Origin: Candidatus Harrisonbacteria bacterium
GTDB lineage: Bacteria; Patescibacteriota; Minisyncoccia; UBA6257; UBA11618
Assembly (NCBI GenBank): GCA_023244835.1
Contig: JAHFLN010000001.1
Coordinates: 4,912-68,911 of the forward strand
Direction of reading: 5' to 3'
DNA length: 64,000 nucleotides
Shown here: in pieces, positions 35,548 to 52,347 of the stretch
Position numbering within the stretch: position 1 is the first letter of the stretch
Layout of the letters: every line of letters begins with the position of its first letter
The notes under the pieces: generated by a model
Seen by the model: the letters and a program-made list of their open reading frames with translations, nothing else
The model's database searches: none
Told to the model about the DNA's origin: nothing
Made by a program: the position numbers and the translations under genes

Positions 35548-35635
35548 GGAGGGGTCGCATAGCGGCCTAGTGCACCATCTTGGAAAGGTGGCATACCGAA
35601 AGGTATCGAGGGTTCGAATCCCTCCCCCTCCGCCA
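35548..35635 (+). tRNA. tRNA-Ser (anticodon GGA), class II with long variable arm, CCA encoded
   Basis: Acceptor GGAGGGG/CCCCTCC; anticodon stem CCATC/GGTGG; loop TTGGAAA; T-loop GGTTCGAATCC; TTGAAC-17-TATACT promoter upstream. Confidence 0.85.
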
Positions 35636-35656
35636 GATTGGCAACTTTGAACCAAT

Positions 35657-36430
35657 ATGAATACATGGACTAAAAAGAGTATAGAACTGGCGCGTAAACC
35701 GGGATATTTAGATGCCTTGGGCGCTATTTATGTTATGAATATAAATCCTAGTAGACCACTAACGGAAGAAGTTGAGAAAAAAATACGAGAGGCTTTCCAT
35801 AATAGAAAAAATAAAGAGTTAGTTCATCTGTTAATTCAAAACGAAGTCTTTCCGGTCAAGGATTCTTATGTCGGATTTTTAAGACTTAACCCTGCGGCTA
35901 TTGATCAAAATCCGATAACTATCAATAGAATATCAGAAAGGCTTTACTCATTGGGGATTGAAGCACTTCTTAAGGAGGCAACTCGTCCTAAAGAGACAAA
36001 TCGTCAACTCGGACACTCATTCAAAAAATGGTTGCCTCAATTAGGTTATCCCGTACTTAATGTAGAAGAGTTTGCCAATACTCGAGGTGTGGCCATCCTT
36101 GCCGGTGGGGACGCACAACTTGCAAAATACGCTAGAGAGAAGTTGGGCTGTGAATTATCCAAAGGTATTGATTTTGTTTTAAAGAAAGGAAAGAATCATA
36201 TTATTGGTGAAGCTAAATTTCTTACAACTCCTGGAGGAGAGCAAGATCGAGGTTTTGATGACGCATCAAATTTTATTAAAGGAAAATTGCGCCCAAATGT
36301 GAAAAGAATAGCTGTTTTGGATGGCTATATCTGGGTAGAACGAACTGGTGGGCTCCACAATAAGATCGTGATGAACAACCTTGATATTTTTAGTGCTCTA
36401 CTCCTTCCCGAATATATTAAAAAGTTTTAG
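35657..36430 (+). CDS. Putative type II restriction endonuclease, PD-(D/E)xK-like
   Basis: AT-rich gene beginning 22 bp after the tRNA; candidate GIDFV...IIGEAKF catalytic motif; convergent with and overlapping the methyltransferase stop. Confidence 0.5.
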   Translation: MNTWTKKSIELARKPGYLDALGAIYVMNINPSRPLTEEVEKKIREAFHNRKNKELVHLLIQNEVFPVKDSYVGFLRLNPAAIDQNPITINRISERLYSLGIEALLKEATRPKETNRQLGHSFKKWLPQLGYPVLNVEEFANTRGVAILAGGDAQLAKYAREKLGCELSKGIDFVLKKGKNHIIGEAKFLTTPGGEQDRGFDDASNFIKGKLRPNVKRIAVLDGYIWVERTGGLHNKIVMNNLDIFSALLLPEYIKKF

Positions 36431-38187
36431 GTTGCAGAATAAACCTCAAAAGAAGCTTTTAATTTAGCTCCTTCTTTTTCTATAAGACTAATAGCATTTT
36501 TATTGAGGTCTATTCCTATCCAATTTCTTTTTAGTTCTTCAGCGGCTAGTAGAGTAGTACCCGACCCCGCAAAACAATCCAAAACCAAGTCGTCTTGCGT
36601 TGTAGAGCTCTGAATAATTTGTTTCAATAAGTCTCGATTTTTCTGTGTTGGGTAAAGAGAGCTCTCGAAACCAGGATCTTTAAAGTCCCACACGTCCTGA
36701 AGTTTCTTGCCTCGGTTTTCGTCTGCGTAGATTTTTTTTCGAGGATTCCCTGAACTAGACCACTCAATCAATCCTTCTTTATCTAGGCGTGTTAATTCTT
36801 CAGGGTTATATCTCCAATGCCTTCCTTTCGGTGGGAGCATGCCTTTCCATTCTCTGCCCGTAGGACCATTTCGTGTCTCTCCTTTAGCGTGAAGAGGTGT
36901 GGTGGCATACCTACGCCCTTTTTTGTCAATCTTGGGAAATTGTTTTATGATCTCCTCCTCAGTTAAGGCTATACGATGGTCCGTCCAAGACATTGGGTCA
37001 TGTCCATTTGGTTTTGATTTGGAATAAAAATATATTACATCTTTTATGTTCCCGAAAGCTTTCCTATCGAAATTTTTTGGATTACATTTTATTCTGGTAA
37101 TGTCATTTCTAAAATTTTCCTCTCCGAATACTTCGTCCATTAATACTTTTACATAATGTCCTATTTTCTGATCAATATGGAGGTATATGCTACCTGTTTC
37201 GGAAAGTAATTCTCTAAGAAGGATCAGTCTTTTTCTTAAAAACTCAAGGAAATCTGTGTTTGTAAGTTTGTCGCTATAAAAGTTTTCTTCGTTATAACCA
37301 ACAAAATCTTGCCCTGTACCAAAAGGTGGATCGATATAAATTAATTCGATATTGCCCTTTATATTTTTATTTTCATACAAATTCTTAAGAACACTGAGAT
37401 TGTCGCCTGCAATTAATTTATTTACAGACTTTGATCCATATTTCTTAGTAAGTTTAAGTTGAGCCGCTTTGATTTCAAGAACTTCTTCTTCCTTTATTTT
37501 TCCTCGATAAATCAACTCAGCTCCTCCTTTAGGACGACGTGCATGAGGAATCGTATGAAGAATATTTTCTGCTCTCTCCCTCTCGGAATATCTTTCGTTG
37601 GATTTAATAATATCTATAACTACACCTTGGATAGTTAACCGTTCAGGTTCAATAAAAAGAGGTAGCATTGTTTGGTTCGCAGGCTGTAGCCGTATCCTAT
37701 TTTTCTCCCTAAAAAACTTTTTAAGTGTGGCGGACTCCTGATCAATCAAAGCAACAACTTTTTGACCATTGTGTGCTACCGATTGACTCTGAATCAACAC
37801 AATGTCTCCATCGTTGATATTCTCATCAATCATACTATCGCCATACACACGTAGAGCGTAAACATCACTACTTTTAGGCATTTTCGATTTCGGGATAGCG
37901 ATTGTCTCCTTTTCTTGAATTGCTTCAATTGGCTCGCCTGCAGCAATAGTACCCAGGAGAGGAATGCTTACCAGGGGTTCGCCAGAGGAAATACTTATAG
38001 AACGTGCTTTATTTTCAGATTTATCCAAATATCCACTATCTCGTAGTTTGTTTATATGAAAATGTGCAGTAGAAACAGAGGCAAGTTTAAAATGCCTCTG
38101 TATTTCCTCTAAGGAGGGGGCATACCCTTTCTTTTTGGAAGACTCTTTTACGAAATCGAAGACCTCTTTTTGCTTTTTGGTGAGCAT
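36427..38187 (-). CDS. LexA-like repressor (HTH plus S24 peptidase) fused to beta-class amino-DNA methyltransferase (DPPF ... FAGSGTT)
   Basis: N-terminal ~205 aa align to LexA (IAAGEPI cleavage site, LRVYGDSM Ser, DGDIVLI, NGQKVVALID, TLKKF Lys); C-terminal motif IV IDPPF then motif I DCFAGSGTT. Confidence 0.8.
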   Translation of the reverse strand: MLTKKQKEVFDFVKESSKKKGYAPSLEEIQRHFKLASVSTAHFHINKLRDSGYLDKSENKARSISISSGEPLVSIPLLGTIAAGEPIEAIQEKETIAIPKSKMPKSSDVYALRVYGDSMIDENINDGDIVLIQSQSVAHNGQKVVALIDQESATLKKFFREKNRIRLQPANQTMLPLFIEPERLTIQGVVIDIIKSNERYSERERAENILHTIPHARRPKGGAELIYRGKIKEEEVLEIKAAQLKLTKKYGSKSVNKLIAGDNLSVLKNLYENKNIKGNIELIYIDPPFGTGQDFVGYNEENFYSDKLTNTDFLEFLRKRLILLRELLSETGSIYLHIDQKIGHYVKVLMDEVFGEENFRNDITRIKCNPKNFDRKAFGNIKDVIYFYSKSKPNGHDPMSWTDHRIALTEEEIIKQFPKIDKKGRRYATTPLHAKGETRNGPTGREWKGMLPPKGRHWRYNPEELTRLDKEGLIEWSSSGNPRKKIYADENRGKKLQDVWDFKDPGFESSLYPTQKNRDLLKQIIQSSTTQDDLVLDCFAGSGTTLLAAEELKRNWIGIDLNKNAISLIEKEGAKLKASFEVYSAT

Positions 38188-38242
38188 ATTGATATTATAG
38201 AAAATAAATAGAAAGTATACAAATCAAGTTATCCACAAGGTC

Positions 38243-39238
38243 ATGGCAAAGCATCACATCGTTCAAGACAAATATCTCACTCAATGGAGAAAAAGCGGAA
38301 CAGAAAATCAGCTCAATATTTATGTTATTCATGAAAATCAAATTATAGAAAGAGGACCGGGATGGAAGGGTTTTTGGAGAGATGATTTTAATGTGCTTGA
38401 AGATGACGGTGAAAAGTCCTACCTCCCAGAGGAAGTTACGGTAATTATTGATACAAAGGGTATTGAAGCTGTCAGGAAAATAAATACTACAAGCGAAGAA
38501 TTATTATCAGGTATGGATAGGAGTTGCGTAGCTTTTTATACGGCATTGCAGTACACAAGAACTCCGCGACACAGAGAGGAAACAAACAAATTGATCGAAG
38601 CTACTACCCGACATTTTATGAGAAAAGACCTTCCATCACCAGATAAGGTGCATATGTCCAAAGATAAGATACTCGAGTATAACCCACAGAATAAAATGGA
38701 GGAGGATGCTCTGGATGTGATAAGTAAGATGACGCAAGAGGAAATCAACTCACAGATTTTTAAGGCAATACACGATGATACAGTCAGGATCGGCCTTACA
38801 AAGACAGGCCACTCAAAAGGCATTCTGAAAGTAGATCGTCATGCCGAGAAGATATTTGAAATGCAGTGGCTATTCCTAGTAACTCCTGAGGGTACGTCCT
38901 TCATTACCTCGGATAGCCCTTGTTTTACAATATCCACATCGAAACTGAATGGGCTAATATCGCCTCACTCAACGGTATATTTCCCATTAAGACCAGATAT
39001 ATGTCTTTACATAAAACCGAGCATGAAATCAAAAGCAGAATACTATATGAAGTTAGATAAGGGACAGGTTAGGGATATAAATTCACTGATACTCTCAAAC
39101 AGTACCCAATGTGCAGTTGCCAAGGACAAAATACATTTAGAGAAACTGACCAAGAACTTCGATTACAAAAACCACAGAAAGTCACGCGTTATATCTATTA
39201 GCGAATCGGGGCCATACACAATGTTTACCGCAGAATAG
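38243..39238 (+). CDS. DUF4238-like protein
   Basis: N-terminal KHHIVQDKYLTQW matching the DUF4238 HhxPQxYL motif; AT-rich; adjacent to R-M pair. Confidence 0.5.
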   Translation: MAKHHIVQDKYLTQWRKSGTENQLNIYVIHENQIIERGPGWKGFWRDDFNVLEDDGEKSYLPEEVTVIIDTKGIEAVRKINTTSEELLSGMDRSCVAFYTALQYTRTPRHREETNKLIEATTRHFMRKDLPSPDKVHMSKDKILEYNPQNKMEEDALDVISKMTQEEINSQIFKAIHDDTVRIGLTKTGHSKGILKVDRHAEKIFEMQWLFLVTPEGTSFITSDSPCFTISTSKLNGLISPHSTVYFPLRPDICLYIKPSMKSKAEYYMKLDKGQVRDINSLILSNSTQCAVAKDKIHLEKLTKNFDYKNHRKSRVISISESGPYTMFTAE

Positions 39239-39479
39239 TAAATTAACCTGAGTAGCCTGTATATTTTAGGCTAGACAGAATAATCAACTGCATTTTGCCC
39301 TATATCTGACTTTGGCTTCGGTACTTCAAACCATTCAGGGTGGACTTTGTAGATAACCCTTAGTTTCTGTATACTTTTATCAAGATCCTCGAATTTGAGC
39401 CGTACTTTTGGTTCAAAGTTACGGGCATCGTCCCCGCCTAATGCAAAAGAGATGGCCTTGCGCCATCCCCTTTTGCATT

Positions 39480-39600
39480 AGATGTGATGGCTTGGAGAGG
39501 ATTCGAACCGAAGGTCCCCTATTTTCAAGGAGGCTTACAGCCGACTATGAAAATAGCGGCCTCGACCGAAGGAAGAGGCGAATCCCCCCCGCCCTTGCAT
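39480..39600. other. Degenerate tRNA-like remnant(s) at far edge of island
   Basis: Plus strand ATAGCGGCCT..ACCGAAGGAAGAGGCGAATCCCCCCCGCCC resembles tRNA-Ser D-loop, variable arm and 3' end; minus strand carries a GGTTCGAATCC T-loop-like motif. Confidence 0.4.
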
Positions 39601-39614
39601 TACTCCTCTTTAAC

Positions 39615-40079
39615 TTAATCCTTCCCAGACTTCGCGCTTATTCCATCGCGTACGATACCCTCAAGCACTGCCGCCGTACTGGCAGCAATGATAGAGCCGA
39701 AGGCAACGAGAAGTCCTATAGCAACCCCGCCTGCCCGGTCATCGCTCGTGTTCAGCATAATGAATACTTCCCCTACCGCGACGAAGCCAATGATAACAAA
39801 GGCGCACCGCCTAATAGTCCGCATGGCATTTACGACTTGTTGCGAAAACGCCTTACCCTCTCGGATATATCGGAGCGCCGTGAATGCCTGATAGAGCGCC
39901 GTGAAAAACGCGATTGATCCTATATAAGCGAATAGTATGAAAGGATCGGAATACATTTCGAAATTCGTGGCGTTCGCGTTCACGCCCTCGACGCGAGGTT
40001 CCCATACGAGAAACGCAAGCGCGCCAATGCCGATAAGCATGATGACTGCTTGAAGAAATATCGTCGGGCCTTTTTTCAT
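39615..40079 (-). CDS. Hypothetical polytopic membrane protein
   Basis: Four predicted TM helices; start chosen at MKKGPTIF. Confidence 0.5.
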   Translation of the reverse strand: MKKGPTIFLQAVIMLIGIGALAFLVWEPRVEGVNANATNFEMYSDPFILFAYIGSIAFFTALYQAFTALRYIREGKAFSQQVVNAMRTIRRCAFVIIGFVAVGEVFIMLNTSDDRAGGVAIGLLVAFGSIIAASTAAVLEGIVRDGISAKSGKD

Positions 40080-40116
40080 ATATAGTTCTTTATGCATACT
40101 ACATTCATCGTAAGAC

Positions 40117-40563
40117 ATGAAGACTACTTTCACCATCGGGGCGTTCGGGATGATATTCGATGCCGAATGGCGCGTGCTTCTCTGCCATAGGACGGACTAC
40201 GACCTATGGAACCTGCCCGGCGGCACTGTCGAGCACGGCGAATCTCCCTGGGATGCCGTGGTGCGCGAAATCAAAGAAGAAACGGGACTGGATGCCATCG
40301 TCTCGCGACTCGCGGGTATCTACAGTAAACCCGACCAGAATGACGTCGTTTTTTCTTTCGTCTGTACGATAACGGGCGGCGTGATAACGCCGAATAACGA
40401 AGCTGATCGTATAGAATGGTTCGCGCCTGCTTCCTTGCCTCCGAATACCTCACCGAAACAAGTCGAGCGTATTATGGATGCCGTTCGGGATCCGAATGCC
40501 ATGCATATGAAAATCCAAACCGGGAAATCCTCGATCGAACTCATCAGGGACGGCCGGCTTTAG
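40117..40563 (+). CDS. NUDIX hydrolase
   Basis: Nudix box GGTVEHGESPWDAVVREIKEETG. Confidence 0.85.
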   Translation: MKTTFTIGAFGMIFDAEWRVLLCHRTDYDLWNLPGGTVEHGESPWDAVVREIKEETGLDAIVSRLAGIYSKPDQNDVVFSFVCTITGGVITPNNEADRIEWFAPASLPPNTSPKQVERIMDAVRDPNAMHMKIQTGKSSIELIRDGRL

Positions 40564-45966: not shown

Positions 45967-46263
45967 TTACGACTCAAGGATCGCGAGGATATCCGCCTCG
46001 TCGGCAACCAAATACTTCTTGCCGTCAAGCTCGACCTCGTCCGGCCCGTATTTCTTGAAAAGCACGAGGTCTCCCACCTTCACGGACATCGGATTCAGCT
46101 CCCCTCGGTCATTCCGCTTGCCCGCGCCGACCGCGAGCACGCGCCCCTTTACCGGCCGTTCTTTTTCCGCTGTATCCGGCAGGACGATGCCTGATTTCGT
46201 CATGCGGTCTTCTTCCATGGCATCGAGAAACACGCGATCAGCAATGGGTTTTATGGTCATCAT
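45967..46263 (-). CDS. groS: Co-chaperonin GroES (as the C-terminal 98 aa of a 328 aa ORF)
   Basis: MMTIKPIADRVFLD...GKRNDRGELNPMSVKVGDLVLF typical GroES; no stop separates it from the upstream nucleotidyltransferase-fold region. Confidence 0.85.
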   Translation of the reverse strand: MMTIKPIADRVFLDAMEEDRMTKSGIVLPDTAEKERPVKGRVLAVGAGKRNDRGELNPMSVKVGDLVLFKKYGPDEVELDGKKYLVADEADILAILES

Positions 46264-46953
46264 AGTACCTAGGAGTATATCCTGTTTTTTCCCATGGTCA
46301 AGAGCGCGAACGCTTTCTCCCGGCGCTTTTTTCGGACGGAAGCACAGCTCGACGCGGCTTTCCGAAACGCTGATGCGCGATTCGCTTGACGCGCCGAATC
46401 GAATGCTCTGCGCCGCGATCCGGCGCTCCTGAATACGCCTCATGAGCGCTTCGCCCCAGGCGCCGAATGCGAAATCGAAGAGCGTCTCCGCGCACGCGAC
46501 AAGCGGGATCTTCTCCTTCCTATAGCGATATCTCACATTCGCGAATATCCCCTCGCGCATCGCCCCTGATGCCGTAAGGAATTCCCCAATCGCCTCCCGC
46601 GTTCCCACGACGGGCACGAGCGACGCGGCGAGGGCCCGTGCATACGCGTCCTCCGGCGCGTCGAGGCGGGCATCCGTCGCTATAAAATGATTCAGGCAAA
46701 AGCCTCTGCCGCGCGCGGCGATATGCGTACGGAGTCCGAGCAAACGGAAAATCCCCAAACAGAAAAAACGCGCCGTATACATACGGCCCGGCCGCGTTCC
46801 GACGATCACATCCCAGTCGGAATTCCTATGGGCATCGCCTGTCGCGAGCGATCCCGACACGAGCACTAAGTCGACGAAGGGGATCCACTCGAAGATCCAG
46901 ACCTTCCCGAGCAGGCCGTGCCATGCGTGGTCGAAAATTCCTTTTTGGTCCAT
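46264..46953 (-). CDS. Nucleotidyltransferase-fold domain ORF continuous in-frame with groES
   Basis: Pol-beta-type motif LVSGSLATGDAHRNSDWDVIV (G[GS]-x9-13-DxD); ATG at 46953 three nt after the rmuC stop. Confidence 0.5.
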
Positions 46954-48036: not shown

Positions 48037-48107
48037 CCGTTCAGGATATGCCAGCCGGGCAAAAAAAAATAGACGGAGCCGTTCCGTCAGTAACCTATAA
48101 AAAAATA

Positions 48108-48543: not shown

Positions 48544-49272
48544 TCAATGACAGCTCGGATCGGCGGGGTTGATTTCGCAGAGTTGTGACTTCACGACCGT
48601 GACGGTCTTCGGAATCTCCACTGACTGGCCCCCCGCATTACCGCACTTCAGAGTATAGGTCGTCGTGCGCGGCGGCGTTACCGTTACTCCGCCGGAAGAA
48701 GGATCGGCGAGCTTGCCGACCGTCGGCAGTATGCGACACTCGTCGGCATCCTCGCATTGCCAGGTGAGGCGCGATGTCTTCTGAGGCGATATGAGAACTT
48801 TCGGCCCCGCATTAAAGGAACAAGCGATGTCGAAAAGATGCGGCGGTTCGACAGGCACGATGCACTTCGCGAGAGAAACCTTATATGTCGGCCCGTTGAA
48901 ATGAAGCCACCCTACCACGTCAGATCCCCATGCATATCCCGAAAGACTGCATCCCAAAGCTTCCGTTCCCACGACTTTAGGTCCGTATGTCGCCCCCTTC
49001 AGCTTCACGATTCCGTCCCAGTCCCCGGAATTCGCGGAAATGACATTCGAGCAATCACCGCCCTCGGTTGCCGAGCAGACCCGGGCAGTATCCCCCGCAA
49101 GCTTGATCCACCCCACATTCTCCGACCATGCATATCCTCCGAACGCTCCCGTTTCCTCGTCTATCGTTGCCTGGTACCCGGGACCCGCAAAGCCGACCCA
49201 GCCGATATTTTCCGACCACGCATGGCCGGAGAGCGAGACGAGCGCGAAGAGCGGAACGAACAGAAATCCCAT
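48544..49272 (-). CDS. Secreted protein with three internal YAWSENIGW-type repeats and Cys-rich C-terminal region
   Basis: Signal peptide MGFLFVPLFALVSLSGHA; repeats GHAWSENIGWVGFAGP, GGYAWSENVGWIKLAG, SGYAWGSDVVGWLHFNG. Confidence 0.6.
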   Translation of the reverse strand: MGFLFVPLFALVSLSGHAWSENIGWVGFAGPGYQATIDEETGAFGGYAWSENVGWIKLAGDTARVCSATEGGDCSNVISANSGDWDGIVKLKGATYGPKVVGTEALGCSLSGYAWGSDVVGWLHFNGPTYKVSLAKCIVPVEPPHLFDIACSFNAGPKVLISPQKTSRLTWQCEDADECRILPTVGKLADPSSGGVTVTPPRTTTYTLKCGNAGGQSVEIPKTVTVVKSQLCEINPADPSCH

Positions 49273-49278
49273 AGGGAA

Positions 49279-49800
49279 TTAGCAGAATAATCCTCCAAAG
49301 CAGACTATGGTTTTCAACACATTTCCGGCAGTTCCCAAAAAGGTATCGCCCCCATCTCCTGCCGCATTCTGCTTGGTATAGAGCGCCTGCGAACACGGGG
49401 CGGGCGCAGTCGCGCCGCATGATTTCGGCTTCGAACTGATTTGGAGCGAGACAACTTTTATGCCTGTAAGTTGGCCGCCTGAACATTGAAGACCCACGGT
49501 CATCGCGAGGCCGGCCGCGCTCGAGCCGTCGCTCTTACAATCGCACTTCCAGCCAGTCCATGTGCATGACGATCCGGCTTCGAGCCATGACGCGCGCGTT
49601 TCCCCGCCAAGGGTTATGCTCGTAGCCTTCAGGTTATTTACCGTCAAATCGCCCGCCTTCACCTGCCTTCCCGATCCTACCGTGATCGGTGAGGGCGCAT
49701 TGTTCAAGGGCGGAAGCGCCGTCGGTTCGGTGAATGCTAACGCAACGGATGCGATGGCTGACATAGCTGCGATCCCCCCGATAAACAAAGATTTCTTCAT
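49279..49800 (-). CDS. Secreted Cys-rich hypothetical protein, paralog A
   Basis: Signal peptide ...ALA|FTEP; shared block with the next gene (SCxWxGWKCDCKSD, KSCGAxAPAPC, C-terminal CFGGLFC). Confidence 0.6.
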   Translation of the reverse strand: MKKSLFIGGIAAMSAIASVALAFTEPTALPPLNNAPSPITVGSGRQVKAGDLTVNNLKATSITLGGETRASWLEAGSSCTWTGWKCDCKSDGSSAAGLAMTVGLQCSGGQLTGIKVVSLQISSKPKSCGATAPAPCSQALYTKQNAAGDGGDTFLGTAGNVLKTIVCFGGLFC

Positions 49801-49849
49801 AGTAGTATCATACCCCGGAACCGAACCTCCGCTCTTGTGGATAAGTCCC

Positions 49850-50740
49850 TCAGCACCAGAAGCAGAGCGCCTTTACCACTTTCGTGGCCGCTTTTACCAC
49901 GGTCGTCGCAGCCGATGTCACGGCAGTCACCGCCGCTTTTACTACCGTCGTACCGACCGCAACCGCGGCCTTAACCGCCGCAACGCCCGTTCCTACCACA
50001 AGCTCGATCGGATTAGTCTTCGGATCAAGGGCGAGTTTCGACACGTCCGAGGCAAGTCCCTTTACGGCATCCACTACCCCGCCCCCGATCGATTTCACCG
50101 TCTCGAATGTCGTTTTCACGCCTTGAACGACGATATCCGTCGCAGCGCTTACTACCGCAACCGTCGTCTTCACCGCAAACGCGCCAACGGCAACCGCGGC
50201 TTTAACAGGAGCGAGTGCTATATCCGCCGCAACCTTTGCCCCACCCGAAAGCCCGGCTGTCGCAGACTCGAGGAATGTCCCGCTATCCTGATTGTTCCGC
50301 GTGTATATCCCTTGCGTGCACGGAGCGGGAGCTTTCGCGCCGCACGATTTCGTCTTTGAGCTCACAGCCAGTCCGAACAGGCCCGCATCCTCCACGCGGC
50401 CGCCCGCGCATTTCACGCCGAAGGTGATCGCAAGGCTCACAAAACTCGAGCTGTCGCTCTTGCAGTCGCATCTCCACCCCTCCCATGAGCACGACTGGCC
50501 CGCGGGAAGCCATGAGGCGCGCGTTTCTCCTCCTAAACCGATGCCGTTTAACGCTTTTATATTTTCTAATGTGAGGTCGCCCGCTTTCGTTTGCGGAACA
50601 GAACTCACATTCAGAAGCTTAGGCGAAGAAAAGCCAGCAGGAGAAGCGATGGGTTCCGTGAATGCGAGCGCCGTTCCGGCCGACGCGCATAGGGCGAGAA
50701 CCGCGCCGCATACGATATGCGCCCGATTGATACTTTTCAT
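49850..50740 (-). CDS. Secreted Cys-rich hypothetical protein, paralog B, with C-terminal Ala/Val/Lys/Thr-rich 11-mer repeat region
   Basis: Same N-terminal block as paralog A, then ~120 aa of VKAAVAVGTTV-like repeats, ends CFWC; DNA-level repeats 49860-50240. Confidence 0.6.
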   Translation of the reverse strand: MKSINRAHIVCGAVLALCASAGTALAFTEPIASPAGFSSPKLLNVSSVPQTKAGDLTLENIKALNGIGLGGETRASWLPAGQSCSWEGWRCDCKSDSSSFVSLAITFGVKCAGGRVEDAGLFGLAVSSKTKSCGAKAPAPCTQGIYTRNNQDSGTFLESATAGLSGGAKVAADIALAPVKAAVAVGAFAVKTTVAVVSAATDIVVQGVKTTFETVKSIGGGVVDAVKGLASDVSKLALDPKTNPIELVVGTGVAAVKAAVAVGTTVVKAAVTAVTSAATTVVKAATKVVKALCFWC

Positions 50741-50741
50741 C

Positions 50742-51689
50742 TCAACGAGGAGGCGGCTGGCCGCCCTGCGGAGGAGGCATTGATGGCGGCGTACATCCTC
50801 CTGGAGGCATCGTGGGCATCGGGCCGCCTGGCTGCATTATAGGACATGGAGGTAACGAAGGGGCCGATGCTTGCACGGTAACCGATGTGGCGCCCAGTGC
50901 CTGACCCTTCGTCCGCAAGGCGGGCACCCTGAGCATTTCCGACCATGAAATGACATCCAGGATATCCCCATCCCTCGTCGTATAACCGTATTTCCCGTTA
51001 ATCCCGATACATACCTCGACTTCGCGACCGGTTGTGTCGGTGCCGACATAGCGATATGCCGCAGTCAGGCGATCCTTAATGGACTGTTTCGAACAGATTC
51101 CGTCGGTATCGCCTCCGAGTGATATCTTATATCTCGTCTCATTGCACTGCGCGGCCGTAAGCGCTGTCCCGTATGCGTCATATGCCCCCCACTTACAAAA
51201 CGGCTCAAGCGGCCCCTTGCCGCACTCTTCCTGGGTTTTTATGCCCGCGCAATTAACGCTTTGCGCTATCTGCGCGAGACTTGGAGGCCTCGGCGCCTCG
51301 ACGACCGGCTGAGGAGTCGGTTCCGGAACAGGCTCAGGAACTATGACGGCGGCCTGAGCCGATGATCTTCTACTCCTCCATCGCGATGTTCTCACTGCTG
51401 GAGTTCCTAATATGGCATCGACAGCTTGGGCGGCATATATTCCGTCCCCATTACCCTCGTCACCATAGAGCGCAAGCTCGACCTCCGTGCATAATTCGGC
51501 ATCCAAGACCTCGCCCTTCGCGCACGCGACATCGAGCACCCTCGTCATCATGCTATATCCCGAAACATATCCCGCCCGATAGCTTTGGGCGTCAATGAAT
51601 CCATATATCAGTATCGCCGCGGCGATCACGATCACCGCGATACTTGCTATCCGCACATTCTTTCCCATATTTTTCATCATACCCCACAA
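50742..51689 (-). CDS. Membrane-anchored hypothetical protein with Pro-rich linker and Pro/Gly-rich C-terminus
   Basis: N-terminal TM; PEPVPEPTPQPVVEAPRPP linker; Cys-containing extracellular domain. Confidence 0.5.
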   Translation of the reverse strand: MWGMMKNMGKNVRIASIAVIVIAAAILIYGFIDAQSYRAGYVSGYSMMTRVLDVACAKGEVLDAELCTEVELALYGDEGNGDGIYAAQAVDAILGTPAVRTSRWRSRRSSAQAAVIVPEPVPEPTPQPVVEAPRPPSLAQIAQSVNCAGIKTQEECGKGPLEPFCKWGAYDAYGTALTAAQCNETRYKISLGGDTDGICSKQSIKDRLTAAYRYVGTDTTGREVEVCIGINGKYGYTTRDGDILDVISWSEMLRVPALRTKGQALGATSVTVQASAPSLPPCPIMQPGGPMPTMPPGGCTPPSMPPPQGGQPPPR

Positions 51690-51714: not shown

Positions 51715-52347
51715 TTATTTCTGGATCGTCACCGGGAACGTATATGATTTCTTCCCCGTCGCCGTTCCCGTTATCTCCACCAATATTGAATAATCGCCGA
51801 GCTCTTTCCAGAAATGCTCGATTGACTTGCTCTCCCCCTTCTTCACCGAACCAGAAATCGCTTGCTTGTCCCCCCAATTCACCGAATATAAGAGATCCTC
51901 GACGTCCGCTCCTATAAGAAGCGAGAGATTTTGCTGGACGGGACGGACGATAGATACGCTCGATTGCTCGCCTAGAGTCCCAATCGGCACCCCTAAAACC
52001 TGTCCAAGCTCCTTCCTCGCGACCTCGATGCCCGCTTTCGTCATCTCGTTAGCGAAACCCGTTACGGCCTCCTTCGGCTTCTCAATAAGGAGTTCCATAC
52101 CTGATTTCACGAGCGATGCGCCCGCATCTTTCGCCGTCTGCGCATGACCCGGCGTCTGATCGAATAACTTCCCGATGCCTATGGAAAGCGATTCGCCGCT
52201 TATCGCGCGCGTCGCCTTCCCGATATCGAAGCCGGAATTCCAGAAATACCATATGCCGCCCGCGACGGCGACAAGAAGCACGAGATAGAGAATTCCGCCT
52301 CCTCCTTTCTTACCTCTCGACCGGCGCGGATATTCGTCGTCGTTCAT
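51715..52347 (-). CDS. Membrane-anchored hypothetical protein
   Basis: N-terminal basic region plus TM helix; first gene of the cluster. Confidence 0.5.
   Translation of the reverse strand: MNDDEYPRRSRGKKGGGGILYLVLLVAVAGGIWYFWNSGFDIGKATRAISGESLSIGIGKLFDQTPGHAQTAKDAGASLVKSGMELLIEKPKEAVTGFANEMTKAGIEVARKELGQVLGVPIGTLGEQSSVSIVRPVQQNLSLLIGADVEDLLYSVNWGDKQAISGSVKKGESKSIEHFWKELGDYSILVEITGTATGKKSYTFPVTIQK

Follow-up and report, generated by a model that had tools for sequence, protein, structure and literature searches.

Paired putative cell-surface proteins of a Candidatus Harrisonbacteria bacterium, one with a long hendecad-periodic amphipathic tail

The 64,000-nucleotide stretch of contig JAHFLN010000001.1 from a Candidatus Harrisonbacteria bacterium, hereafter called the window, carries two neighbouring paralogous genes for Cys-rich proteins, a long paralog of 296 amino acids (aa) and a short paralog of 173 aa. 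Both belong to a small, uncharacterised protein family of modular build in this Parcubacteria-group bacterium of the Candidate Phyla Radiation (CPR, Patescibacteria). Four modules follow each other: an N-terminal hydrophobic segment with a V/A-x-A site, a W/F-T-E-P module, a beta domain of about 75 residues with six cysteines, and a C-terminal segment. In the long paralog the C-terminal segment is an Ala- and Val-rich tail whose hydrophobicity recurs with a period of 11/3 residues. We tentatively favour, with slightly less than even confidence, a pair of cell-surface proteins in which the tail would form a 3-11 amphipathic helix, with the broad Ala/Val side buried on lipid or on another hydrophobic surface.

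The sequence strings quoted in a preceding sequence-only reading of the window agree with the translations of the open reading frames (ORFs), and both ORFs lie on the minus strand where that reading had placed them (Table 1). BLASTP aligned the two proteins with 83 identities in 158 positions (53 %, E=6e-51) over the shared blocks that the reading had listed, and bears out the proposed paralogy. The ORFs overlapping both paralogs on the plus strand are without homologs; they are the usual shadow ORFs of DNA with 56 % GC. Orthologs of the long paralog have 286-300 aa and 49-70 % identity to it. Six contigs encode the identical 296-aa protein, with no variation in tail length seen among them, and the three places shown are each from a different ENA assembly. 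Together with the tail length kept in the orthologs, this recurrence rules out an assembly artefact, the objection that the sequence-only reading had raised against itself.

The tail of the long paralog (residues 158-296, 139 residues) contains 31 Ala, 30 Val, 16 Thr, 13 Lys and 12 Gly, next to 7 Leu, 4 Ile, 3 Phe and no Met. Periodicity analysis of hydrophobicity gave a Fourier peak at 98.0 degrees, a period of 3.67 residues (11/3), in seven of seven long orthologs, with z values from 13 to 24 and of 17 for the window protein. An Ala/Val/Lys/Thr-rich tail with an 11-residue rhythm had been claimed before, and composition and period both support it. None of the shuffled tails attained the observed peak, power at 100 degrees (period 3.6) or 102.9 degrees (period 3.5) was about 3- to 40-fold lower, and the same test showed no 11/3 peak in the Cys-rich domain. 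Residue autocorrelation peaked at lags 7, 11 and 18 (z=4.0, 2.9 and 2.7). Arranged in rows of eleven, the tail has Lys, Glu or Asp at position a (mean Kyte-Doolittle value -3.5) and small or polar residues at e, h and i; the remaining seven of the eleven hendecad positions are Ala/Val-rich and make up an apolar face. In each 22-residue segment the phase falls between +170 and -122 degrees, a single register that runs through the Gly/Pro breaks. A conserved turn, LALDPKTNPIELVVGTG, occupies residues 236-252. Ortholog indels in the tail are either exactly -11 (L003) or +4 followed by -4 about 20 residues on, and thus preserve the phase, which argues that selection keeps one continuous amphipathic stripe. 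The grand average of hydropathy (GRAVY) is +0.91 for the tail versus -0.10 for the rest of the mature protein, and the net charge of the tail is +5. The AlphaFold2 (AF2) model places tail helices at residues 168-198, 203-216, 220-238 and 244-295, with a predicted local distance difference test (pLDDT) of 37-63 and a predicted template modelling score (pTM) of 0.38. Conservation among the long orthologs is 39-73 % in the tail versus 65-92 % in the domain; local phmmer with the tail alone as query recovered all seven long forms at 62-244 bits (self match 244).

The sequence-only reading had attributed the tail to a repeat expansion visible in the DNA at 49860-50240. A recent event of this kind was not upheld. 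The direct repeats in this region have copies of only 13-47 nucleotides (nt) and 64-92 % identity, Tandem Repeats Finder reported no array there, and synonymous sites carry no trace: identical residues 11k positions apart used the same codon in 57 cases versus 60.8 expected from the codon usage of the tail. The best block, residues 176-206 versus 253-283 with 16 of 31 residues identical, has a nucleotide identity of 59 %, as the amino acids predict (p=0.62). Self-similarity of the tail protein was above that of full shuffles (p<1/300), but not above that of shuffles preserving the hendecad columns (p=0.38). A recent duplication inside the tail was rejected, since its best block is no better than the hendecad column composition and no excess at synonymous sites exists. 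The tail is a periodic architecture rather than a set of recently copied units, and the DNA repeats follow from its periodic Ala/Val/Lys/Thr coding. Without a repeat array and without an excess of shared synonymous codons, the elongation of the tail has to be seen as ancient.

The family is rare, with about 50 clusters. Word-indexed searches revealed 9 and 29 family clusters among 5.8 billion, and a scan of 241 million metagenome records 12 family loci; when the profile was run exhaustively against 1.84 billion representatives, 19 proteins reached E<1e-30. In a neighbour-joining tree of 124 domain columns all long-type sequences form one clade (96 % of 500 bootstraps), which supports a single duplication, apparently older than the split of lineages now only ~50 % identical. 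The long gene is the direct neighbour of the short one in the window and at the loci L003, L010 and L012, in agreement with the gene duplication suggested earlier. At the more distant loci L007, L008, L009 and L011 a single short-type gene occupies the same position, and neither a long form nor the 315-aa gene found next to the long paralog in the window is present. Within the long-type clade the tails comprise 21 (P0037), 88 (P0036), 136 (L003) and 146 residues, while basal family members end directly after the domain; the tail thus grew after the duplication. Of the proposed course, duplication and then repeat expansion, the outline stands as an elongation after duplication, documented by these lengths and the 11-residue indel; the recent, DNA-visible expansion does not. 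Some distant members have shorter amphipathic tails: that of P0052 has about 40 residues and ends in KALCFWC, those of P0044 and P0047 have no cysteines and the aromatic ends FGSLF and FRKWF. A tail with a hydrophobic end may thus be older than the long/short duplication, or may move between lineages.

Both paralogs begin with a predicted Sec-type signal peptide; that of the long paralog has the basic n-region, the hydrophobic h-region and the small residues at positions -3 and -1 that the rule for Sec export and signal peptidase I, applied to the sequence, asks for. In 135 module-bearing proteins position -1 is Ala in 125 and position -3 is Val or Ala in 113, the textbook pattern for signal peptidase I, and the motif starts at a median residue of 27. 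Cleavage of both signal peptides before F/W is predicted on these grounds. The six cysteines of the following domain are invariant across 35 aligned family sequences. AF2 modelled the domain of the long paralog at pLDDT 84-92, with long strands at residues 88-96, 102-112 and 115-127, and its FTEP module at pLDDT ~45-50; for the short paralog, the domain reached 74-91 and a C-terminal helix (154-168) was of low confidence. No fold match for the Cys-rich domain was found in PDB or BFVD. The C-terminal segment usually ends in Cys-x2-5-Cys beside aromatic residues, and both paralogs end in this way. The last residues of the long forms are K-A-L-C-F-W-C or, as variants, CLWC and CFGFC; those of many short forms are C-[LF]-G-G-[LI]-F-C, and CFGGLFC, CLGIFC and CLWGLLCH occur elsewhere. 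Some relatives have no C-terminal Cys, but their end residues are aromatic all the same. The variable spacing of the Cys pair suggests a small disulfide-closed hydrophobic loop or inter-chain staples.

The N-terminal part is far more widespread than the family itself. At E<=1e-3 the family profile hit 3,159 representative clusters, most of them matching only the first 60-80 profile positions (positions 4-80). This module consists of a hydrophobic segment ending in A, followed by W/F-T-E-P-T/S-x-x-P-P-x-G/N-N-V-x-A-P-L/I-N-V-G-x-x-x-Q-x-K-x-G-x-L. It lies at 50507-50740 and 49582-49800 (minus strand) in the window, and elsewhere among the proteins P0053-P0182. Module-bearing proteins come in many lengths, with numerous fibre-like ones among them; some have Peptidase_S74 ends, and P0072 has a Peptidase_S74/tail-fibre C-terminus. 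Three fibre-like proteins, P0054, P0056 and P0061 (290-566 aa), bear the Cys-rich domain at their distal C-terminal end. Pfam and NCBIfam have no model for the N-module or for the Cys-rich domain. A viral origin of the family was rejected, as a search of the IMG/VR viral contigs yielded relatives neither of the domain nor of the N-module. Neither the motif strings AWTEP, WTEPT, FTEPT and WSENIGW nor the subject of Cys-rich or tail-fibre surface proteins in the CPR led to relevant literature. The sequence-only reading had overlooked this modular build, as well as the C-terminal Cys-x2-5-Cys and the conserved gene cluster. The W/F-TEP module could mark a general CPR surface-display or docking system.

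In the mechanism that we tentatively favour, both proteins would be exported by Sec and processed before F/W, and their cysteines would form disulfides outside the cell. The FTEP module would be the cell-proximal docking part, because it is common to thousands of fibre-like secreted proteins. The Cys-rich domain may act as a binding knob; its capping of the distal C-terminus of long fibre-like proteins gives a hint in this direction. The tail would fold into a long 3-11 amphipathic helix with 7 of 11 positions (Ala/Val/Thr/Gly, an arc of ~230 degrees) buried against lipid or another hydrophobic surface, possibly the outer membrane leaflet of the cell itself or a host-cell envelope. Its one stripe of Lys/Glu/Asp would face the water, and the terminal Cys-aromatic-Cys loop would be an interfacial plug. 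Lengthening in steps of 11 residues would raise the contact area, and so the avidity, at unchanged geometry. Export, disulfides, lipid binding and localisation are putative and deduced from the sequences.

By analogy, periodicity and composition of the tail match the lipid-binding regions of alpha-synuclein and perilipins. The register is unbroken over the helix breaks, as expected of segments lying on one surface, and so greasy a tail cannot remain water-exposed. The other products of the gene cluster also begin with transmembrane (TM) or signal segments, which we count for a surface location. Binding of the tail to a membrane or another hydrophobic surface is plausible given the 11/3 period, the 7-of-11 apolar face and the GRAVY of +0.91. 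Several observations weigh against this interpretation. An oligomeric coiled coil fits the same numbers, and hendecad coiled coils are recognised by just this periodicity. The apolar face is much broader and the polar face far less charged than in apolipoproteins, perilipins and alpha-synuclein, and a monomer would be poorly soluble en route. The central turn, LA.DP.TNPIELVVGTG, is conserved, which speaks for a specific fold more than for generic adsorption, and the AF2 confidence for the tail is low (pLDDT 37-63). Many family members are tailless; the tail is thus an accessory and not the core function.

The most serious competitor, rather unlikely in our estimate, is an oligomerisation stalk. 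The tails would assemble into a parallel, straight or slightly right-handed hendecad coiled coil, a trimer or higher, of ~20 nm if continuous; the C-terminal cysteines would form a ring of inter-chain disulfides at the far end, and the product would be a short surface fibre carrying the Cys-rich knobs. A continuous coiled coil requires one 11/3 register, here kept over ~135 residues, and indels that leave it intact, here of 11 residues or of 4s that compensate each other. The Cys pair, with its spacing from x2 to x5, is easier to accommodate as inter-chain staples than as a precise intramolecular motif, and a low monomer pLDDT is typical of obligate oligomers. The N-module is also common to proteins with tail-fibre-type C-termini (Peptidase_S74), and proteins of this type are trimeric. 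However, known hendecad coiled coils have their core at a/d/e/h and far fewer apolar positions; with 7 of 11 apolar positions, such a bundle would be greasy on the outside as well. There are few large core residues (7 Leu, 4 Ile, 3 Phe and no Met of 139), and the rod would be interrupted by GGG at 219-221 and by DPKTNP at 239-244.

Beyond the surface-binding helix of our tentative preference lies a bolder version, speculative and improbable as a whole. With the hendecad tail and its Cys-aromatic-Cys tip, an ultrasmall episymbiont might grip or insert into the lipid envelope of its host cell, reach and avidity being tuned in 11-residue steps, and W/F-TEP might mark a CPR-wide, as yet undescribed surface-display system (~3,100 clusters) with a common docking partner, possibly the 210-aa or the 242-aa neighbour described below.

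A membrane-permeabilising or inserting effector aimed at the host cell has only a slight chance. Its helices would assemble in the target bilayer, and the disulfide-closed aromatic loop would aid insertion. Amphibian helical peptides with a C-terminal 'Rana box' are analogous in design, not homologous. The narrow polar stripe with the broad apolar face, the net charge of +5 and the short forms, which already bear an amphipathic helix and then C-x5-C, agree with such a role. So does the life style, as all cultivated Patescibacteria are obligate episymbionts of other microbes according to an excerpt of PMC12206443. However, Pfam and NCBIfam scans revealed no toxin, immunity or secretion-system gene in the cluster, the locus lies in conserved housekeeping synteny (cdaA ... 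rmuC, groES/EL) instead of a mobile or variable island, the length of the helices far exceeds the thickness of a bilayer, and no sequence relation to known pore formers exists.

Equally improbable is a soluble intramolecular bundle, in which the tail folds back as an Ala-rich four-helix packing that regulates or shields the Cys-rich domain. AF2 does split the tail into four helices at Gly/Pro turns, and the central turn motif is conserved. But the helix lengths of 31, 14, 19 and 52 residues are unlike a regular bundle, the tail is, at a GRAVY of +0.91, more apolar than a small soluble bundle allows, the pTM is 0.38, and both the single register across the turns and the indels of 11 or +4/-4 would stay unexplained. 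A non-functional tail, whether from faulty assembly, a wrongly called frame or the drift of low-complexity sequence, is hardly credible: low-complexity composition and a conservation below that of the domain agree with it, but the identical protein on six contigs (three assemblies among the places shown), the length kept in ~50 %-identical lineages, the phase-preserving indels, the conserved turn and KALCFWC end, and the recovery of all seven long forms by tail-only local phmmer (62-244 bits) speak against it.

The two genes are part of a same-strand run of cdaA, DUF4015, a 210-aa TM protein, a 315-aa TM/Pro-rich protein, the long paralog, the short paralog and a 242-aa protein, followed by rmuC and groES/EL. 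This order was also present in three other lineages (L003, L012 and L010). Intergenic gaps are minimal: the stop of the 315-aa gene abuts the start of the long gene, and the 242-aa gene begins 6 nt past the stop of the short gene. The consensus scan found no terminator-like sites between the five genes; on its 3' side, the transcription unit probably ends at the hairpin between the 242-aa gene and rmuC (Table 1).

A gene of the 242-aa type (241-259 aa) immediately follows the short form on the downstream side in the window and at L003, L008, L009, L010, L011 and L012. The AWSENIGW genes lie at L003:10532-11260, L008:8451-9176, L009:8402-9181, L010:4563-5285 and L011:5898-6623; at L011 the short gene and the AWSENIGW gene overlap. 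Residues 134-226 of the 242-aa protein match PHROG 2155 'virion structural protein' (E=2e-8), its sole family match; Pfam and NCBIfam gave none. The AWSENIGW protein may be a functional partner of the Cys-rich proteins. The 315-aa gene is confined to loci with a long form: L007 and L008 lack it, and the L010 version has 112 aa, the N-terminal part only. Its product had no family match in Pfam, NCBIfam and PHROG scans. The long form and the 315-aa gene seem to have been gained together. The 210-aa gene is kept upstream at L003, L007, L008, L009, L010 and L012, and its product has sub-threshold matches only (PKD_4, E=0.026; PamR, 13 bits versus a cutoff of 300).

Table 1. Features of the two paralogs and of their surroundings in the window
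Feature	Position	Strand	Remarks
Long paralog (P0001), 296 aa	49850..50740	-	ORF list, stop codon included
Long paralog, residues 1-26, predicted Sec-type signal peptide	50663..50740	-	MKSINRAH, 18-residue uncharged stretch, A-L-A before F27
Long paralog, residues 27-78, N-terminal 'FTEP...P...Q.K.GD' module	50507..50662	-	invariant columns F27, E29, P30, P34, P40, Q50, K52, G54
Long paralog, residues 79-157, Cys-rich beta domain	50270..50506	-	invariant C84, C91, C93, C111, C133, C141
Long paralog, residues 158-292, hendecad (11/3) amphipathic helical tail, ~12.3 units	49865..50269	-	Fourier peak, AF2
Long paralog, residues 293-296, C-terminal Cys-Phe-Trp-Cys	49853..49864	-	C293 and C296 invariant in ortholog alignment
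Short paralog (P0008), 173 aa	49279..49800	-	ORF list
Short paralog, residues 1-22, predicted signal peptide	49735-49800	-	
Short paralog, residues 23-73, FTEP module			
Short paralog, residues 74-152, Cys-rich domain			
Short paralog, residues 153-173, short tail	49282-49344	-	TFLGTAGNVLKTIVCFGGLFC
242-aa gene	48544..49272	-	N-terminal hydrophobic segment, [YH]AWSENIGW repeats, Cys-containing C-terminal domain ending CEINPADPSC
315-aa gene (312 aa in source assembly)	50742..51689	-	upstream; N-terminal TM, Cys-containing middle, Pro/Gly/Met-rich C-terminus
210-aa gene	51715..52347	-	upstream; N-terminal TM segment, C-terminal beta domain
Terminator-like hairpin and T-run	48072..48088	-	between 242-aa gene and rmuC, consensus scan only

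Two further observations concern the surroundings. The groES gene (45967-46953, minus strand) encodes 328 aa, of which only residues 234-325 are Cpn10; the N-terminal extension of ~230 residues has no Pfam match and is conserved in related metagenome-assembled genomes, where groES products have 321-328 aa. A low-GC island at 35548-40200 (0.38-0.42 versus about 0.56) begins immediately after tRNA-Ser(GGA). Its genes encode a restriction enzyme of the Tsp45I type (35657-36430, plus strand), a protein with DUF4238 (38243-39238, plus strand) and, at 36427-38187 on the minus strand, a 586-aa protein that unusually joins a LexA DNA-binding domain and Peptidase_S24 to an N6/N4 DNA methylase. This is probably a restriction-modification island gained by horizontal transfer, the methylase of which has a self-cleaving repressor-like domain.

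How CPR bacteria attach to other cells and exploit them is largely obscure, and most of their surface proteins are unannotated. A secreted disulfide-rich knob combined with a lipid-binding-type 3-11 helix in an extracytoplasmic bacterial protein is without example in the libraries and the literature searched. The natural length variants (0, about 20, about 40, 88, 136 and 146 residues) present a series for relating helix length to binding strength, and the N-module is a possible marker for cataloguing CPR surface proteins. As an ordinary coiled-coil stalk, the tail would be a modest addition to the catalogue of surface proteins; interest would be higher if it engages host membranes or if the N-module defines a general CPR surface-display system.

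Among the known systems close to the paralogs are the fibre-like CPR proteins (e.g., P0072, P0082, P0124 and P0169), with a signal peptide and an N-module homologous to those of the paralogs. They carry hundreds of residues of 'GNVGIGTT.P..KL.V.G'-type repeats and in some cases a C-terminal Peptidase_S74, whereas the proteins of the window join the module directly to the Cys-rich domain; unlike the long paralog, none of those inspected has a hendecad tail. The Pam pili (PamA/PamB) are, like the window cluster, CPR-specific extracellular proteins encoded in a conserved operon. The NCBIfam Pam models matched neither paralog. A link to the Pam pilus was rejected, with the 210-aa neighbour reaching 13 bits only (cutoff 300) and the pilins being described differently, as Ig-like proteins assembled by donor-strand exchange and found mainly in Saccharimonadia and Microgenomatia, in an excerpt of the preprint (bioRxiv 10.64898/2026.03.03.709456).

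Scans of both paralogs and of the tail alone against Pfam, NCBIfam and PHROG gave nothing above threshold, and a match to NS1_C (E=0.01-0.04, below cutoff) was dismissed as noise. PDB sequence searches with the ortholog profile and with the tail alone returned nothing meaningful. A bacterial lipoprotein was rejected, as Cys residues within the signal peptides are not conserved and mostly disagree with the lipobox [LVI][ASTVI][GAS]C. C-terminal sorting signals (LPXTG/sortase, PEP-CTERM, GlyGly-CTERM and the like), which consist of a signature motif, a hydrophobic TM helix and a basic tail, were rejected too: NCBIfam gave no match, and the tail has a charge every 11 positions, no uncharged run of ~20 residues and a Cys end. 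Type IV pilins have a short basic leader and a G|F/M-x-x-x-E cleavage motif ahead of a hydrophobic helix; this assignment was likewise rejected, since the hydrophobic segment of the paralogs precedes the conserved F/W-T-E-P and a Pro-rich stretch comes after it.

Hendecad coiled coils, right-handed or straight, are known from prokaryotic surface proteins, such as the tetrabrachion stalk and stalk segments of trimeric autotransporters. The tail shares with them the continuous 11-residue register over a long stretch, with the phase-preserving indels that define this class, a putative cell-surface setting and the fibre-like kin of its N-module. It differs in far more apolar positions per repeat, few large core residues and Gly/Pro breaks, and no homology was detected.

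The synuclein family has the repeat consensus KTKEGV. As a control of the method, alpha-synuclein residues 1-95 gave the same peak at 98.0 degrees, and the fraction of A+V+T+G+K in this control sequence was 0.74 versus 0.73 in the tail. The 11-mer helices of alpha-synuclein, perilipins (Plin4 above all) and exchangeable apolipoproteins have, like the tail, an 11/3 periodicity in a single register over more than 100 residues. No homology stands behind this likeness: BLASTP of the tail versus alpha-synuclein gave E=26, and a Pfam scan of the tail at E<=10 no match to Synuclein, Perilipin or Apolipoprotein. The tail is also more apolar (GRAVY +0.91 versus +0.15 for alpha-synuclein, with 7 of 11 positions in the apolar face), its units are, unlike those 11-mers, not recognisable sequence repeats, and it would lie outside the cytoplasm of a bacterium, following a signal peptide and a disulfide-rich domain and ending in Cys-aromatic-Cys. 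In perilipins, apolipoproteins and alpha-synuclein, 11-mer repeats form 3-11 helices that fold on lipid contact; longer helices bind better, Thr-to-Val exchanges on the apolar face strengthen binding, and the Plin4 design is scalable in length (PMC5889406). The tail of the long paralog would act like an 11-mer-repeat amphipathic helix but lies outside the synuclein, perilipin and apolipoprotein families, and its novelty would be a 3-11 amphipathic helix in a putative extracytoplasmic surface protein of an undescribed CPR family.

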